From contig CAYIUL010000001.1 of the NCBI GenBank assembly GCA_964366725.1, forward strand, positions 1 through 51,984: a stretch of 51,984 nucleotides of DNA, written 5' to 3'. This DNA is from an uncultured Candidatus Saccharibacteria bacterium (GTDB lineage: Bacteria; Patescibacteriota; Minisyncoccia; 2-02-FULL-40-12; GWA2-44-9). The stretch's first letter is position 1, and every line of letters begins with the position of its first letter. Both the position numbers and the translations under genes were made by a program. Below, in pieces: positions 10,182 through 39,095 of the stretch. The notes under the pieces were generated by a model. The model saw only the letters and a program-made list of their open reading frames with translations. It made no database searches and was not told where the DNA came from.

Positions 10182-10982
10182 TTAGAACTCCACCGTATTC
10201 ACCCCTCCGCGAGTGTCCGCTTCTATGAGTTTATAATTCCTACCGTCATCAACGACAAGCCAGTCCTCGTCTTTATACCACGTGGCTTTAACTATAGGCC
10301 TCGCTATGCGGATGATGCGTTCTTTTTCTCCCGCTTTCCTTAACGGTTGGTAGTTCGTGTCATTGAACCAGATGACCCAAAGCTCTCTTCCTGACCAGTA
10401 GGCGAGTTTATTATCGTCTTGAGAAAGCGAAAACCCTTTTACGTTTACGGCCAATTGTTCTGGTTTGTTTTCCGGGCCGTTATTTTTGTATAAAATATTA
10501 CTCTTTAAATAATACGGCTCGGGGTTCGGTGTTGCCGAAGGCGAGGGACTGGGAGTTATTTTGGGAGCCGGTTGAGGATAAAGGATCTCTTCCAACTCCG
10601 CTTCAAGCGCCTCTTTTTCCTCTCCCGCGACGGGGAACAGGATTATTTTGGAAAATTCGTTTACCAAACCTTCTTCGATAACGAACCTCTTTTCCCACGA
10701 AGAATACTGGTCGTCCCGCGCGAGACGGACGGAATATTCCCCAGGCAAAAGGCCGTTGATGGTTTTGGAGTTTCCGAGGAAAGAAGTGTTGCCCGCCAGC
10801 TTATCGTCCAAATATACTTTGGCGCCGACATTGGCTTTGACGTGAACTGAACCCGTACGGCTAAACCTCCTCTCGGAGAAGTTATATTTGTATCCCTGCG
10901 CGTAGAGAACTACGACATAGCTTACAAACAAAAAAATGGCTACCGCTGTATAGAATATCGTCCTCTTGGTGCGTTTGGTCAT
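10182..10982 (-). CDS. membrane-anchored PEGA-domain protein
   Basis: 266 aa. N-terminal TM helix and a PEGA-like beta domain (VHVKANVGAKVYLDDKLAGNT ... LPGEYSVRL). Confidence 0.7.
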   Translation of the reverse strand: MTKRTKRTIFYTAVAIFLFVSYVVVLYAQGYKYNFSERRFSRTGSVHVKANVGAKVYLDDKLAGNTSFLGNSKTINGLLPGEYSVRLARDDQYSSWEKRFVIEEGLVNEFSKIILFPVAGEEKEALEAELEEILYPQPAPKITPSPSPSATPNPEPYYLKSNILYKNNGPENKPEQLAVNVKGFSLSQDDNKLAYWSGRELWVIWFNDTNYQPLRKAGEKERIIRIARPIVKATWYKDEDWLVVDDGRNYKLIEADTRGGVNTVEF

Positions 10983-11060
10983 AAGTAGATTTACCCTGTT
11001 GATTTTAGCATAAAATAAGATTAGATTAAAGCATCATAAAGCAGGCCGGCAAGTTATAAC

Positions 11061-11110
11061 TGGCAACGAGGATGAACAAAAATTTATTTTTGATTCATCC
11101 GAGAGAACCA
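11061..11110 (+). other. conserved 50-nt hairpin motif, copy 1 (upstream of mreB)
   Basis: TGGCAACGAGGATGAACAAAAATTTATTTTTGATTCATCCGAGAGAACCA. Same length and flanks as 37223-37272, with compensatory inner-stem differences. Confidence 0.6.
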
Positions 11111-11130
11111 GTTATATGTAATCATATAAT

Positions 11131-12132
11131 ATGAAAAAGATCGGAATTGATTTAGGCACAACCAACACCGTAGTATTCCTTCCCAAGAAAGGGATTATTC
11201 TCAACGAGCCGTCTGTGGTGGCGATTTCTATTCTCGACAACAAGATACTTTCTGTCGGCAATCTGGCCAAGGAAATGATAGGCCGGACGCCCGACAGCAT
11301 TGTCGTTTCCCGCCCGATGGTGGACGGTGCGATTGCCGACTACCGCGTTACCGGAGCGATGCTTAAGTATTTCATTAAAAAGGCGGGCGGATTTTTGAGT
11401 TTCGTTAAGCCGGAGGTTTTAATATCCGTTCCAGCCGGAGTCACCTCGACAGAAAGAAGAGCCGTGATCGAGGCCGCCCTTAATGCCGGAGCCAAAGCCG
11501 TCTATTTGGTTAAAGAACCGGTTCTTGCCGCAATCGGCGCCAAGATACCCATTAACAGCCCGTCGGGAAACATGATATTGAACATCGGCGGAGGCACAAC
11601 CGAGATAGCCGTCATCTCTCTGGGGGGAATAGTGAGCTGGGAGTCGGTCCGCATCGGAGGCAACAAACTCGATCTGGCCATCGTGGAATACATCAAGAAA
11701 AAACATGGCCTGGCGATAGGTGAAAGGACAGCTGAGTTGATAAAAATATCCATCGGCACGGCCATGAAAGAGGCCAATGAAGAAAAAATAAACATCCGTG
11801 GCCGCGACCTTGCTTCTGGTTTTCCAAAAACCATCGAAGTAACCTCCAACGAAGTGACCGAGGCCATCACCGAACATTTAAGGGAGATCGTTCAGATAAT
11901 TAAGAGCGTCCTTGAAAGGACGCCGCCGGAACTCTGCTCCGATATTATGGATAAAGGAATCCACATCTCCGGCGGAGGGGCCTTGCTCAAAAATATAGAC
12001 AAGCTCATCACCAAGGTCACCGGAGTGCCGGCTCAGATAGCCGACGACCCTCTTTTCTGCGTCGCCCGCGGCACCGGCATAGTTCTTGAGAACCTCGACG
12101 TCTACAAGCGGAATGTGCTGGCCAAAAGATAG
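11131..12132 (+). CDS. mreB: rod-shape-determining actin homologue MreB
   Basis: 333 aa. Motifs: [31 protein letters not shown]. Confidence 0.95.
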   Translation: MKKIGIDLGTTNTVVFLPKKGIILNEPSVVAISILDNKILSVGNLAKEMIGRTPDSIVVSRPMVDGAIADYRVTGAMLKYFIKKAGGFLSFVKPEVLISVPAGVTSTERRAVIEAALNAGAKAVYLVKEPVLAAIGAKIPINSPSGNMILNIGGGTTEIAVISLGGIVSWESVRIGGNKLDLAIVEYIKKKHGLAIGERTAELIKISIGTAMKEANEEKINIRGRDLASGFPKTIEVTSNEVTEAITEHLREIVQIIKSVLERTPPELCSDIMDKGIHISGGGALLKNIDKLITKVTGVPAQIADDPLFCVARGTGIVLENLDVYKRNVLAKR

Positions 12133-34593: not shown

Positions 34594-34630
34594 AGTGTAC
34601 AAATGTACAAAGGGCGCCTTTGTACACTCT
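34592..34630. repeat. REP-like hairpin, left flank of the Y1 transposase
   Basis: AGAGTGTACAAATGTACAAAGG-gcg-CCTTTGTACACTCT. Core is GTACAAAGG-gcg-CCTTTGTAC at 34605-34625. Confidence 0.8.
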
Positions 34631-34641
34631 GCTCCCCTTTT

Positions 34642-35280
34642 TCAAAAGTCACCCTTATCTAGTAATAAATCCTCCATATCTTTTTTTGATTTTATAATTT
34701 CGTAAGACGATTCGGTGAATTCTTTAAAATCTTGAATATTCTTAAATTGATTGCCAATCAAAGCTGTGTCGCAAAGATCACTTTGACTGTTTAGGTAGGC
34801 AGGATAGCTGCTCCAGATATATTCGGCCGAATTTTTTATAAGACCTGCTACTTTAGGGTTTAAATGTATATAAGCTGCAAGCCAAGTTAGATAATCATTA
34901 TCATCCACTATTATTTGCCTGAACCGATCTTGAAAAACATGGCCCACATGCTTATATTTTTTATTGGAATATTTAGAGTAGCTTGTGCAGAGTTTTAGAA
35001 TTAATTTGCTCGGCGGTATTTCATTGTTTTGTTTTATAAGCAAATGAAAATGATTCGGCATCAAACAATATGCCAAAAGAGTAAATGAGCCCGACGGAAG
35101 AGGTTGGATTCTATAATATCTGTTTTTCTCATATGTTTCGGGAAATAAATTTTGCCTTAATCGCAATAGGAAAAATTGATAGTCCTCTCTATTGATAAAG
35201 ATGTTGTTTTTGAAATTGCCCCTATTATAAATATGGTAAATCTCGCCAACTCCTGTTTGTTTATAATCTCGCGTATTCAT
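34642..35280 (-). CDS. IS200-like / REP-associated tyrosine (Y1, HUH) transposase
   Basis: 212 aa. YHIYNRGN, LAYCLMPNHFHLLIKQ (HUH), GHVFQDRF, YIHLNPKVAGL (catalytic Tyr region). Confidence 0.8.
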   Translation of the reverse strand: MNTRDYKQTGVGEIYHIYNRGNFKNNIFINREDYQFFLLRLRQNLFPETYEKNRYYRIQPLPSGSFTLLAYCLMPNHFHLLIKQNNEIPPSKLILKLCTSYSKYSNKKYKHVGHVFQDRFRQIIVDDNDYLTWLAAYIHLNPKVAGLIKNSAEYIWSSYPAYLNSQSDLCDTALIGNQFKNIQDFKEFTESSYEIIKSKKDMEDLLLDKGDF

Positions 35281-35303
35281 GATCCTACCTTACTTTAATT
35301 CTC

Positions 35304-35336
35304 CCAACTGTGCAAAGGCGCCCTTTGTACGGTTGG
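35304..35336. repeat. REP-like hairpin, right flank of the Y1 transposase
   Basis: CCAACTGTGCAAAGG-cgc-CCTTTGTACGGTTGG. The core at 35310-35330 is the reverse complement of the left core apart from 1 mismatch. Confidence 0.8.
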
Positions 35337-35875: not shown

Positions 35876-36337
35876 GTGGAAATCACAAAACTACCTAACA
35901 AAATACTGGCTAAAAAGATGGCTGGGGTGGCCCTGGAAGATATAAAGAAAGGTTCCTACCGGAAGCTGGTTTCGGATATGAAAAAGGCGATGAGGGAGAA
36001 TGAGGGTGTGGGTCTCGCGGCAAATCAGATCGGCAAGGACTTGAGCCTTTTCGTGATAGATATCAAGACCGCTGACGCATACAAGGTACCCGAGGTATAT
36101 TTCAACCCCGAAATTACTGAGTATTCTCACGAAACTGACGCGATGGAAGAAGGCTGTTTATCCATTCCGGAATTTTACGTTCCCATCACGCGGGCAAAAA
36201 AAATAAAAATCAAAGCCGTGGACGAAAACGGCAACAAGATAAAATTCAGAGCCAGGGGTTTCTTGGCGAGGGTTCTCCAGCACGAAACCGACCATCTTAA
36301 CGGCAAGACAATAAAAGACAGGGCCAATGGGAAATAA
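35876..36337 (+). CDS. def: peptide deformylase
   Basis: 153 aa. Motifs: GVGLAANQIG, EGCLSIP, QHETDHLNG. Confidence 0.92.
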   Translation: MEITKLPNKILAKKMAGVALEDIKKGSYRKLVSDMKKAMRENEGVGLAANQIGKDLSLFVIDIKTADAYKVPEVYFNPEITEYSHETDAMEEGCLSIPEFYVPITRAKKIKIKAVDENGNKIKFRARGFLARVLQHETDHLNGKTIKDRANGK

Positions 36338-37211
36338 AATAAACATTGTATTTTTTGGAACCCCTGAATTTGCCGTGGCGCCAGTTTTAGGGGCTCTCAT
36401 CAAAAATGGCTACAACGTTTCCCGATTTCAGCCGCATTCTCTAAAGGACGAGCGGGTTTTCGAAGAATTTAAAGAATCAAACCCGGATCTTTGTATTGTG
36501 GCCGCTTACGGAAAAATACTTCCGGCACGGTATCTCGATATACCAAAATATGGATTCATAAATGTCCATCCGTCTCTGCTCCCCAAATACCGGGGCCCGT
36601 CCCCTATTCAAACCGTGATCTTGAACGGCGACCAAGAAACCGGGGTTACCCTCTTGATGGTGGATGCGAAAGTTGACCATGGCGCTATTCTGGCAAGTTC
36701 CAAATACCAAATTCCTGAAGATAAATATTTTACCGAGACGGCAAAAGAACTTTTCGAATTAGGAGCAAAGTTATTGATAGAAATTCTTCCGAAATATATT
36801 AACGGTGAGATCGAGCCGAAAGAGCAAGACCACAGCCAAGCCACATTCACAAAAATGTTCAAAAGAGAAGACGGAAAAATAAACTGGCATGACCCGGCAC
36901 AAGAAATTTATAACCGTATCCGCGCCTTGAACCCGGAACCGGGCACATGGACGACATGGCACCCTTCAACAAGCTCAGGGCAAGCAGACAAAGTTATCAA
37001 CATTTCCGATGTAACGACCTTCAAGGTCGTTAGTCCACAGGGTGGAGATTTAGTGCCGGGAACAGTTAAAAAAGTTGACAATAAGGTTGTCGTGGCCACC
37101 TCTTCGGGTTATCTTGAACTCATATCCATCCAGCTTGAGGGCGGGAAAAAAATGGATGCCAAAAGTTTTATCAATGGCCATCCTAACTTCCTGAACTCGC
37201 AGCTGGAATAG
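36327..37211 (+). CDS. fmt: methionyl-tRNA formyltransferase (N-terminal loop deleted)
   Basis: 294 aa. Motifs: IVFFGTPEFA, INVHPSLLPKYRGPSPIQ, DAKVDHG. About 30 aa are missing where the [10 protein letters not shown] loop is expected. Confidence 0.88.
   Translation: MGNKINIVFFGTPEFAVAPVLGALIKNGYNVSRFQPHSLKDERVFEEFKESNPDLCIVAAYGKILPARYLDIPKYGFINVHPSLLPKYRGPSPIQTVILNGDQETGVTLLMVDAKVDHGAILASSKYQIPEDKYFTETAKELFELGAKLLIEILPKYINGEIEPKEQDHSQATFTKMFKREDGKINWHDPAQEIYNRIRALNPEPGTWTTWHPSTSSGQADKVINISDVTTFKVVSPQGGDLVPGTVKKVDNKVVVATSSGYLELISIQLEGGKKMDAKSFINGHPNFLNSQLE
37012..37032. repeat. in-CDS palindrome, TAACGAC family, copy C (variant)
   Basis: TAACGACC-ttcaa-GGTCGTTA, translated VTTFKVVS in fmt. 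The 3' flank GTCGTTAGTCCACAGG is identical to copy B. Confidence 0.7.
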
Positions 37212-37222
37212 CTCTTTTACAA

Positions 37223-37272
37223 TTGGCAGCGAGGATGATTGAAAACTTGTTTTCAGTTCATCCGAGCGAACC
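37223..37272 (+). other. conserved 50-nt hairpin motif, copy 2 (after fmt, upstream of a membrane protein gene)
   Basis: TGGCAGCGAGGATGATTGAAAACTTGTTTTCAGTTCATCCGAGCGAACCA. Confidence 0.6.
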
Positions 37273-37284
37273 AAGTGTATAGGC

Positions 37285-37788
37285 GTGACGATTACAAGGA
37301 AAGGAGGAAAAGCGTTGCTAACCCACAACCACGGTCTTCTGGCCTACTGGTTCAACGGCTTTTTGAATAAAAAACTGAAAACGAACATACAGCCGATCTA
37401 TATCATGGCGGGAGCGGTCTTGCCCGACATATTCATCATATTTGACTTTCTCTTCCGCTTTGAGCCGTTGGTCGTCGTGTCCAAATGTTTTCATTCTATC
37501 CCGATCTTCGGTATTTTCTTCTTCGGATTTATCTTGGGTCAAAGTTTTCGTTACAGCCGGACGATGGCTTTCTTTGCGGGCTGGGGAATTTTCCACATCG
37601 CGGTGGACATAGTAACGCACAAAAACAAAGCTTGGCCGTATTTCTGGCCTTGGCTTGACTACCCGATACACGGAGTAGCCGATCATGGCAACCCCATACT
37701 TTTGGGGCTGGAAGTGATCCTGACTGTTTACATTTTGTACCGCGCATTGGTCTGTGTGACCAATCTGGTTACCAAAAAGACGCCTTGA
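37285..37788 (+). CDS. integral membrane protein, possibly DUF457/YdjM-like metal-dependent hydrolase
   Basis: 167 aa, GTG start (uncertain). His-rich N-terminus LLTHNHG. 4-5 TM helices. Confidence 0.5.
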   Translation: MTITRKGGKALLTHNHGLLAYWFNGFLNKKLKTNIQPIYIMAGAVLPDIFIIFDFLFRFEPLVVVSKCFHSIPIFGIFFFGFILGQSFRYSRTMAFFAGWGIFHIAVDIVTHKNKAWPYFWPWLDYPIHGVADHGNPILLGLEVILTVYILYRALVCVTNLVTKKTP

Positions 37789-37823: not shown

Positions 37824-39095
37824 CTACAACACTATCGGTTTGTCGGTTTTGTAGGTAGCCAGTTCGGTTTGATTGATGGGGGCTATCTGTTCCGGATCGA
37901 GTTTCATTCTCCGGACCGCCGACTGGGTAAGATATCTTTTTACCCTGCCATTGACCAGCTGATAGACGTCGCGATTCAAAGGGTTCTCCAGAAAGACGAA
38001 CTGGTTCTGAGGATAAAAATTGAATTCTTTCTTGCTGATGACGATTATGTCCTCTTCCCTGTCCCCGTAGGAACTGAAGACATTTTTGTCCGGTATAAGA
38101 CGGACCATTCCGCCTTCGGTGAAGTAATACGTTTTCTTCTTGTTGCCGGTTACCTGCATAAGCTTTATTCTGGGAAACTTATCCAACTGCTTCTGGGCGA
38201 TGTCCTGAACCATTTCCATTTTAAAGCCGTAGTCAAAAAATATGTCCATCGTCGGTATCAAATGCTTCTTGCCCCCAACAATCTCATAAATTTCCTCTTT
38301 GTCTTTGACCCTGACGAGATTGACCGAATCGCTTCCTTCCTGTTTTTTACCGGCAGTGTAGATGGCAGCCGTTAAATTAGAACCGCCAACCGAATTATCA
38401 GACGAGTTATCCGGGGTGTTGACCGGAGCAGTTGAACCGGAACTGAACACCGAATTGATCACGCTCCCCGATCCTGACGTCCCCGGCTGGTAGCCAGCCG
38501 GCACGCTGCCGCCGCAACCCAAACCCAGCGAGGATAAGGCGCTGCAAACAAAAGCGTTCAAGTCATTACCGACTAAAGCGACCGGGCCAAAGGACCCGCC
38601 GCCACTGAAGACGGAAGACGAGGGTGTCAAACTGTCGCTTACGGTATAAGTAATGTTGACCTGATCGACGGACGCGCTTTGAGCAAACGGGCTTTCTCTC
38701 ACGATAACCGCGCGCCATCTTAACTCATTTCCCACCGAATCAAATGTATAAGTAAAGCCGGGATTTACCTGTGTCCACCTGAAACCGTTGTTATTCGACA
38801 AATAATAAATGATATTCGCGCCGGAAGGGATAGAGACACTCACGTCTAAACGAGCGCTTACTATCAACTTCGACGGATTGGCCACAACGTCTGAGGCAAC
38901 AGCTGAGGAGACCGAATCGTCGGCGGTATAAAACCTGCCGTTTGAAAGCTTGGCCGAGGTCTGTCCTATGTCAATGTTGGACCAAAAAGAAAGGTCGTCG
39001 GAAAACAGAAAAACTTGATCGGCCTTGGCGTTCAAGCCAAAAACAAGGCCTAAAACAACCGATATGATCACTGCGTGTTTAGTAACTTTAAGCAT
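37824..39095 (-). CDS. hypothetical secreted protein
   Basis: 423 aa. Signal peptide MLKVTKHAVIISVVLGLVFGLNAKA and a Ser/Gly-rich linker. No recognised domain. Confidence 0.6.
   Translation of the reverse strand: MLKVTKHAVIISVVLGLVFGLNAKADQVFLFSDDLSFWSNIDIGQTSAKLSNGRFYTADDSVSSAVASDVVANPSKLIVSARLDVSVSIPSGANIIYYLSNNNGFRWTQVNPGFTYTFDSVGNELRWRAVIVRESPFAQSASVDQVNITYTVSDSLTPSSSVFSGGGSFGPVALVGNDLNAFVCSALSSLGLGCGGSVPAGYQPGTSGSGSVINSVFSSGSTAPVNTPDNSSDNSVGGSNLTAAIYTAGKKQEGSDSVNLVRVKDKEEIYEIVGGKKHLIPTMDIFFDYGFKMEMVQDIAQKQLDKFPRIKLMQVTGNKKKTYYFTEGGMVRLIPDKNVFSSYGDREEDIIVISKKEFNFYPQNQFVFLENPLNRDVYQLVNGRVKRYLTQSAVRRMKLDPEQIAPINQTELATYKTDKPIVL

Follow-up and report, generated by a model that had tools for sequence, protein, structure and literature searches.

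A widespread TTAT-associated hairpin family in Patescibacteria is probably a gene-less mobile element

Introduction

The genomes of Patescibacteria (also known as the Candidate Phyla Radiation, CPR) are tiny and usually thought to be poor in repeats. Elsewhere, hairpin-forming repeats of approximately 100–150 nt, such as Correia (NEMIS), ERIC and bcr1, occupy AT-rich intergenic sites and are co-transcribed with their neighbours, without having a transposase of their own. Amongst the described mobile elements with T-rich targets, the group A IStrons of the IS200/IS605 family insert 3′ of ATTAT or TTTAT (PMC4227781). Described herein is an imperfect hairpin that occurs twice in a stretch of 51,984 bases (the window) from an uncultured bacterium deposited as Candidatus Saccharibacteria (contig CAYIUL010000001.1 of assembly GCA_964366725.1; this assembly, referred to as G000, comprises 522 kb and is 86 % complete). 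Both copies belong to a large family that is present at a given site in one genome and missing from the same site in its close relatives. These hairpins are probably gene-less mobile elements, non-autonomous and inserted in single-stranded form 3′ of TTAT. As they are gene-less, are inserted at TTAT and have copies Paceibacteria-wide, they are most likely selfish repeats rather than dedicated regulatory RNAs.

The closest resemblances are to elements that move as one strand. Like IS200/IS605 ends, PATE/mini-IS elements and group A IStrons, the family sits directly 3′ of a T-rich 4–5-mer that already exists at the empty site. It also shares with IS200/IS605 the want of terminal inverted repeats and, in recent copies, of any variable duplication, the imperfect subterminal hairpins with strand-specific conserved bases, and an internal segment complementary to the putative cleavage-site sequences. 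With the repetitive extragenic palindrome (REP)/REPIN–RAYT (REP-associated tyrosine transposase) systems it has in common that the units are short, imperfect extragenic palindromes behaving as non-autonomous mobile units, in which stems vary and pairing is kept, and that the genomes encode RAYT-like Y1 proteins.

Two hairpins in the window and their empty counterparts

A sequence-only reading of the window had reported a 50-nt hairpin motif present twice with compensatory stem changes, and had taken this for the covariation of a selected RNA or single-stranded DNA (ssDNA) structure. The shared pattern, GGCARCGAGGATGA-N18-TTCATCCGAGMGAACC, has exactly two matches in the window, 11062-11109 and 37225-37272 on the plus strand, and none in 100 dinucleotide-preserving shuffles. 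The inner stems differ as described (CAAAAAT/ATTTTTG in copy 1 and TGAAAAC/GTTTTCA in copy 2), neither copy has a T-run, and 20 nt separate the first from the ATG of mreB (11131). The coordinates need a small correction, as copy 1 was placed correctly at 11061-11110 on the plus strand and copy 2, in the same register, occupies 37224-37273, one base away from the 37223-37272 first given. More substantially, 50 nt falls short of the true unit, which consists of a 60-nt hairpin (11056-11115 and 37219-37278) plus an adjoining small hairpin. The outer stem gained in this way is compensated as well (TTATAAC.../...GTTATAA in copy 1 against ACAAT.../...AGTGT in copy 2), and 70-nt stretches fold far better than shuffled sequences (−23.4 and −25.0 kcal/mol, with z = −6.8 and −4.6, for copies 1 and 2, respectively).

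Comparison of filled with empty sites delimits copy 1 as a 70-nt element (AACTGG...CATAT, 11058-11127, plus strand; 89.2 bits in a covariance model search) that sits in the mreB leader, 3 nt 5′ of the ATG. Immediately before it lies the target pentanucleotide GTTAT (11053-11057, plus strand), identified from the empty orthologous sites of genomes G003 and G010 and from the flank statistics of 81 copies given below. Out of 22 genomes compared at mreB, only G000 is filled. In G003, the MreB of which is 96 % identical, the site reads ...caaGTTAT|AACATGaaaaag, with an intact GTTAT|AACATG, as against ...caaGTTAT[AACTGG...AATCATAT]AATATGaaaaag in G000; G010 is likewise empty (caagttataaaATG). The reverse situation is found between rplX and rplE, where G000 is empty (GTATAATATATG in operon sense) and its sister genome G001 is filled. 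Across 28 genomes, this spacer is filled only in G001 and G015; the empty ones include G000, G003, G005 and G008, as well as all five other genomes of the genus of G015. The empty rplX–rplE site reads TATTAT|AC. Similarly, G001 has, and G000 lacks, a copy upstream of dnaN, and one further site of G015 is empty in three genus-mates. Each empty site holds a single TTAT (or a diverged form of it), and each filled site holds TTAT followed by an element ending (N)TAT. The element comes and goes between close relatives and is, in this sense, an insertion polymorphism.

Copy 2 is a 75-nt element (AATTGG...ATTAC, 37221-37295, plus strand; 88.6 bits), its ends being placed by analogy with copy 1, and follows the target-like pentanucleotide TTTAC (37216-37220, plus strand), as read from the sequence. 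On its 5′ side is the stop codon of fmt (37211), and on its 3′ side a gene for a YdjM-like membrane protein, with a Shine-Dalgarno sequence and a TTG start (37315); the same insertion is present in the same-genus genomes G001 and G003 (L005 and L006). The two window copies are not the remnants of one recent duplication including its flanks, a possibility that the sequence-only reading had raised.

Target, ends and a longer version

Over 81 copies, flank positions −4 to −1 are occupied by T in 69, T in 76, A in 80 and T in 71, with positions −4 and −3 lying outside the search model and so being unbiased; from position −5 outwards, composition is that of the background. The element thus sits directly 3′ of TTAT (rarely TTAC) and ends (N)TAT (or TAC). 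No terminal inverted repeats are found at the element ends, the 5′ side being formed by the large hairpin and the 3′ side by a small or GC-rich one.

Whilst the short form of the element measures 70–85 nt, a long form of ~190 nt has the same 5′ hairpin followed by three further hairpins, ending ...CCTCGCGGYWWGCCGCGAGGAGGATTCAT. Near-identical copies of this version occur at unrelated sites in three genera (genomes G029, G034 and G033; loci L031, L067-L076 and L202-L211), with sharp ends, at which TTTAT stands on the left and the right end, TTCAT, reads ...GGATTCAT(T). They are often located directly after the T-run of a terminator. At least 12 of these near-identical copies, with different flanks, have neither terminal inverted repeats nor a copy-specific duplication. 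Near-identity at unrelated loci of three genera suggests recent activity and possibly horizontal spread.

These ends bear on whether the family could be a conventional miniature inverted-repeat transposable element (MITE), mobilised in double-stranded form by a DDE transposase with duplication of a 3–5-bp AT-rich target (TTAT/TAT). The copies are small, intergenic and numerous, as a MITE would be, and several are flanked by direct repeats, for example ATTAT...ATTAT at rplX–rplE in G015 and TTAC...TTAC at window copy 2. Such an origin is nevertheless highly improbable, as the element ends carry no terminal inverted repeats, the recent 190-nt copies combine TTTAT on the left with TTCAT on the right and show no copy-specific duplication, and the conserved bases are strand-specific. 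Correia, ERIC and bcr1 repeats differ from the family on the same grounds, in that terminal inverted repeats and duplications of TA or TTTAT are found in them, and neither inverted repeats nor a variable duplication in the family described here. With 6-mers, a test for copy-specific direct repeats could not tell the copies from the control, since TATA-like ends are common to all copies.

Architecture and covariation of the family

From 5′ to 3′, the main hairpin consists of an 8 bp stem (P1), a (C/G)A loop, a 2-bp helix (R-Y with R-Y), GA, a variable stem (P2) with a 4-nt apex, and then GA, the helix partner, GAA and the 3′ strand of P1. The two GA dinucleotides oppose one another in the manner of tandem G.A pairs, within a Y-GA-R context on both strands. 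In copy 1 (11056-11115, plus strand), where fold, alignment and family covariation agree, the fold places P1 at 11056-11063 with 11108-11115, the 2-bp helix, which follows a CA loop, at 11066-11067 with 11103-11104, the tandem G.A pairs at 11068-11069 with 11101-11102, the 3′ GAA bulge at 11105-11107, and P2 at 11070-11082 with 11087-11100, capped by TTTA. Copy 2 (37219-37278, plus strand) has the same architecture by fold and alignment, with GC/GC as its 2-bp helix and CTTG as its apex.

A small hairpin, P3, lies directly 3′ of the main hairpin and shares with it TTAT, the last bases of the 3′ strand of P1. In copy 1 it can be read directly from the sequence as TTATATG-TAAT-CATATAA (11112-11129, plus strand), its 5′ arm sharing this TTAT, and the same layout recurs in the 81 listed copies; in copy 2 it was read by eye as TGTA...TACA with an inner CG-TGA-CG mini-hairpin (37276-37296, plus strand). 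Since the 5′ arm of P3 and the 3′ strand of P1 share these bases, the internal segment can pair with either the left target or the right end of the element. This segment, 3′ of P1 and referred to here as the putative guide, is ATA (GTA in genus g1) and is complementary to the end of the left flank, TAT (TAC), or alternatively to the right end of the element. In copy 1, the last two bases of GTTAT (11053-11057) pair with it to form the base of P1. In copy 2, C37220 pairs with guide base G37277, a compensated variant of TTAT with ATA, and the GTA guide agrees with both the TTTAC of the left flank and the ATTAC of the right end. The flank–guide pair (family pair 2-85) is U-A in 66 rows and C-G in seven.

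The family consensus reads ATAATTGG...CCAATTAT. Covariation was evaluated on 88 matches (83 distinct rows) in an alignment fitted to the covariance model, which favours structure, although the margin is very large: 90.9 % of cells are standard pairs, against 35–48 % when partners are slid, double-sided changes affect 22 of the 23 base pairs (314 cells), and none of 500 shuffles matched any of the observed covariation measures. The claim of a selected structure, made initially from two copies, is thereby upheld in a large family. Within a single genome, too, the stem changes between copies are compensated; in G015, each of eight copies has a P2 of its own. Outside the helices, by contrast with the stems, eight purines (A, GA, GA and GAA) are invariant or nearly so: unpaired A12, A17, A72 and A76 are found in all 76 distinct copies, and G16, G71, G75 and A77 in 70–75 of the 76.

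Several traits favour folded DNA over RNA as the selected form, to judge from sequence features. The apical loops are frequently palindrome-like, with 41 of 61 four-base loops having complementary first and last bases (TTTA, CTTG), such that the palindrome runs to a 2-base centre; GNRA occurs once amongst these 61 and UNCG not at all. P3 often contains mini-hairpins similar to GCGAAGC, which is a very stable DNA mini-hairpin. Pairs of the G-U and U-G type number 54 against 33 of the A-C and C-A type, an asymmetry that is weak for an RNA, and the orientation of the copies relative to genes is mixed, as described below.

A folded DNA hairpin of constant structure and free sequence, with extrahelical bases and a variable apical stem, also recalls the integron attC sites, which are recognised as folded single strands. 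The family might accordingly be imagined as a recombination site of a tyrosine recombinase, either attC-like or exploiting Xer, that acts through the short shared core TTAT; its size of 60–190 nt, its unpaired spacer bases and the short core common to both junctions would fit. This is very unlikely, however, given that the attC boxes RYYYAAC...GTTRRRY (the R″/R′ consensus) are missing from the family consensus, that neither arrays nor cassettes are seen, that no recombinase gene was seen beside the copies and no integron integrase in their context, and that the junctions share just 4–5 bases.

Distribution and database comparisons

Two covariance models were used in searches, one built from the two window copies (R1) and one from 57 family members (R2). 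In G000 itself, both return only the two copies. Beyond it, many further copies lie in relatives, so that the two hairpins do not stand alone, as the sequence-only reading had allowed they might. Over 101 related genomes, R1 finds copies in 30 and R2 in 43, with between 1 and 17 per genome, and in the sister family f2 all eight genomes are positive with R2. In a sample of the class, 28 of 151 genomes have copies by R1; in a sample of the phylum (151 genomes), only one genome besides G000 does. A scan of named genomes with the exact pattern returned mostly metagenome-assembled genomes labelled Patescibacteria, Parcubacteria/Paceibacterota, Yanofskybacteria or Spechtbacterales, along with eight loci from those labelled Candidatus Saccharibacteria (labels as deposited) and eight matches in unrelated, mostly high-GC taxa that look like chance. 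The family is real and widespread in Paceibacteria-class Patescibacteria.

The comparison with Rfam that the sequence-only reading had proposed gave no match in Rfam 15 at the gathering threshold across the whole window on both strands. At a relaxed threshold, RF01742 (lactis-plasmid; gathering score 70) is matched by copy 1 with 29.5 bits and not at all by copy 2. The likeness consists of a two-hairpin layout and an internal-loop module, (G)AA - 2 bp - GA // GA - 2 bp - GAA (GAA-AC-GA // GA-GU-GAA). It falls below the gathering score, and the motif itself, which has no assigned function, comes from Lactobacillales plasmids near repB (Weinberg et al. 2010, PMC2864571). A literature search on repeats or MITEs in CPR genomes found nothing relevant, and the family is apparently new to the record, being neither catalogued nor described.

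Genomic context and possible roles in RNA

The copies are intergenic. By crude open reading frame (ORF) calls, the downstream gene is on the same strand for 48 and on the opposite strand for 26 of 74 copies (the latter ~35 %), and divergent spacers exceed convergent ones at copy sites (19 versus 5). For approximately 25 copies, the ATG of an unrelated housekeeping gene follows 15–37 nt 3′ of the hairpin without a Shine-Dalgarno sequence. The housekeeping genes found after copies include mreB, dnaN, rpsL, rplJ, cspA, ychF, rsmI and those for an FKBP and a LysM-M23 peptidase (products named by eye), and tRNAs lie downstream of some copies. In G001 and G015, which represent two genera, the ribosomal-protein operon contains an antisense copy in the spacer of rplX and rplE. 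One copy of G015 (L007, G015:C13:18767-18826) lies a few hundred bases from a reverse-complement-like 5′ part of a 23S rRNA gene, and the element is thus also found beside rRNA genes.

Such settings raise the question of a structured cis-regulatory or protein-binding RNA, in which the GA/GAA loop would bind a ligand or protein, and a switch between P1 and P3 would expose or hide the start codon. The strong covariation with invariant purine loops, the 48 of 74 copies co-oriented with the gene downstream, the roughly 25 that precede a housekeeping ATG lacking a Shine-Dalgarno sequence, the overlap of P3 with the 3′ strand of P1 in the manner of an expression platform, and the weak likeness to the lactis-plasmid motif would all be in keeping with it. 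It is nonetheless unlikely. Mixed orientation (for 26 of 74 copies, the gene faced is convergent or antisense), functionally unrelated downstream genes (tRNAs included) and the antisense rplX–rplE copy in two genera are together a poor fit for a dedicated leader RNA, whilst the same loci are empty in sister genomes and mreB is without a Shine-Dalgarno sequence in empty genomes too. Additionally, the 190-nt versions begin directly after upstream terminators and the apical loops are not of RNA type. Of the two forms that the sequence-only reading left side by side, ssDNA fits better, and the part in 5′ untranslated regions or RNA processing that it implied is not favoured, given the ~35 % of antisense copies, the insertion polymorphism, the TTAT target and the DNA-palindrome loops. 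There is no need for a dedicated RNA function to explain the element.

Effects at the RNA level are, however, possible at some sites. A hairpin in a leader or operon spacer, such as that of mreB, is probably co-transcribed and may affect the mRNA. An explanation built on this, namely a mobile element co-opted at some sites as a co-transcribed hairpin for RNase III/RNase E processing or stabilisation, as reported for Correia and ERIC repeats, is rather unlikely. The position of many copies in operon spacers or leaders without room for a separate promoter would suit this, as would the stability of the hairpin (−23 to −25 kcal/mol), its retention in genomes without Y1 genes, and the persistence of individual insertions across genera, as before the LysM-M23 peptidase gene of family f2 and next to fmt in genus g1. 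On the other side, processing or an effect on expression would be conjecture, persistence can be neutral in compact intergenic spacers, and orientation is mixed.

At mreB, a box resembling a promoter (TTGATT-N17-TAGATT, 10999-11027) lies upstream of the gene and is kept in G000, G001, G003 and G015, although it falls below the threshold of the scanner, and a consensus scan for sigma-70 promoters and terminators around both copies found nothing. This box is probably the mreB promoter, which would put copy 1 inside the 5′ leader of mreB, and the element there is probably transcribed. A Shine-Dalgarno sequence is missing before mreB in filled and empty genomes alike, and in most of the genomes compared at this start (window 11128-11133 and relatives, L110-L131); an AT-rich TATAA(C/T) stands directly before the ATG. 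Other genes do have AGGAGG, for example at 37303-37317. Initiation at some core genes could therefore be leaderless or otherwise non-canonical.

A proposed mode of movement and its relation to known systems

To return to the reading preferred here, a gene-less mobile element, the hairpin would move as folded ssDNA by strand-specific cut-and-join, in a reaction like those of the IS200/IS605 Y1 (HUH) transposases and of the REP/RAYT systems, with the enzyme supplied in trans. The internal guide would pair with both the left flank and the right end, so that both junctions (T|A) come to stand opposite the same two guide bases. Folding could in this way align both junctions on one guide, the geometry needed by a one-strand cut-and-join reaction, as far as the sequences allow this to be predicted. 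The class of the enzyme is a hypothesis rather than a finding.

In several respects the family departs from the systems to which it was likened above. Compared with IS200/IS605, the copies neither contain nor adjoin a tnpA or tnpB gene, their large hairpin reaches right up to the left junction, and both ends would rely on a single internal segment. Hairpins next to the canonical tnpA genes of these genomes are unrelated and GC-rich, no cognate Y1 gene with element-like ends was found, and the GC skew of short flanks reveals no replication-strand bias. In contrast to REP/REPIN–RAYT systems, the copies do not bracket RAYT-like genes, lack a 5′ GTAG-type head, are few per genome (1–17) and have a defined TTAT flank.

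A more speculative, although possible, proposal is that the family constitutes a new type of single-strand transposon, minimal and self-aligning, in which a 3–4-nt guide beside a G.A-zippered hairpin would pair with the right end of the element itself as well as with the TTAT target. A DNA of ~70 nt would then hold all of the cis information for precise excision and for retargeting (ATA to TTAT, GTA to TTAC). Its mover would be a so-far unrecognised Paceibacteria enzyme, which could be one of the many RAYT-like Y1 paralogues of 210–290 aa, and domestication may also have turned some copies into leader hairpins for housekeeping genes without a Shine-Dalgarno sequence.

If the mobile reading is correct, a structured and gene-less element has spread across a whole class, into leaders of core genes and into the spacers of their operons (mreB, dnaN, rpsL, rplJ, rplX–rplE, tRNAs and rRNA). 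For RNA-motif discovery this calls for caution, as strong covariation and invariant loops can stem from a mobile DNA hairpin and not from a regulatory RNA. As a compact candidate substrate, the element would also lend itself to the study of how HUH-type or other strand-specific enzymes recognise a hairpin plus guide, and its pattern of presence and absence would be a ready marker of strain-level population dynamics in uncultured CPR lineages.

Y1 genes and the search for the enzyme

Y1_Tnp (PF01797) genes are present in 51 of the 101 relatives, and all three genomes with bursts of identical copies (G029, G033 and G034) have one. A number of results weigh against a Y1-driven mobile element. No copy adjoins a Y1 gene in a comparison of contigs, and covariance model scans of canonical tnpA and RAYT loci returned no motif. 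The RAYT-like genes of G000, G029 and G034 are bracketed by unrelated palindromes of their own, and the canonical tnpA genes by unrelated GC-rich hairpins of theirs. In family f2, the element is present in eight of eight genomes and a Y1 match in two of eight, and three of the five genomes with most copies (G076, G082 and G061) have no Y1 match. Orientation shows no bias relative to local GC skew (0.006 ± 0.011, n = 79), a value based on 3-kb flanks that are too short and on genomes in which origins were not placed. Older sites with an identical flank and right end (ATTAT...ATTAT) are compatible with a 3–5-bp target duplication there. Lastly, the copies within a genome are old and differ by compensatory changes, which also fits selection for a host function.

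Four Y1 genes lie in G000, a striking number of paralogues for a 0.5-Mb genome. That of the window (34642-35280, minus strand) encodes a RAYT-like protein of 212 aa, with 41 bits to PF01797 and, as its best NCBIfam match, REP-associated tyrosine transposase NF047646 (50.5 bits against a cut-off of 80). It forms part of a unit (34604-35331) in which the gene lies between inverted REP-like palindromes, TGTACAAAGGGCGCCTTTGTACA (34604-34626) and GTGCAAAGGCGCCCTTTGTAC (35310-35330). These are the only copies of the palindromes in the assembly, and a similar unit of gene and palindromes exists in G034. The further RAYT-like genes of G000 are at C6:17173-18152, C32:2986-3736 and C5:684-1778. Those on C6 (TAACGACAC..GTGTCGTTA) and C32 (TCAAGGCGTCGCCTTGA) have their own palindromes on both sides, and that on C5 has only an unrelated hairpin on each side.

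Neighbouring genes and other observations

The genes around the copies were assigned by Pfam. mreB (11131-12132, plus strand), downstream of copy 1, matches MreB_Mbl with E = 8.9e-134. Upstream of copy 2, fmt (methionyl-tRNA formyltransferase; 36327-37211, plus strand) matches Formyl_trans_N and Formyl_trans_C, and downstream of it the gene for the YdjM-like membrane protein (37315-37788, plus strand), the start of which was picked by its AGGAGG box, matches YdjM with 28.4 bits, just below the cut-off of 29. Two long ORFs adjoining the copies, at 10182-10982 (minus strand, 266 aa) and 37824-39095 (minus strand, 423 aa), have no Pfam match.

Further identities for the hairpin were considered and set aside. 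An intron or split-tRNA arrangement was rejected on the basis that ARAGORN finds intact tRNAs beside some copies and none around copies. A promoter, suggested by TATAAT boxes at the ends of P1 and P3, was dropped because these TATA-like ends are better explained as target and right end; the boxes are in addition too near the start codons, and a double-stranded promoter leaves the stem covariation unexplained. K-turn, loop E, hammerhead and other ribozyme cores were judged a misfit, as the 2-bp helix covaries and the junction has a two-way topology, and the family consensus contains no match to a sigma-54 promoter.

A different hairpin insertion of ~80 nt (gcgaatgacatccgaatg...cattcgtatcattcgc) occupies the rplX–rplE spacer of G010 (L148), at the same GATATAAT site after the rplX stop codon, and other families of elements may therefore use the same TATAAT/TTAT target.

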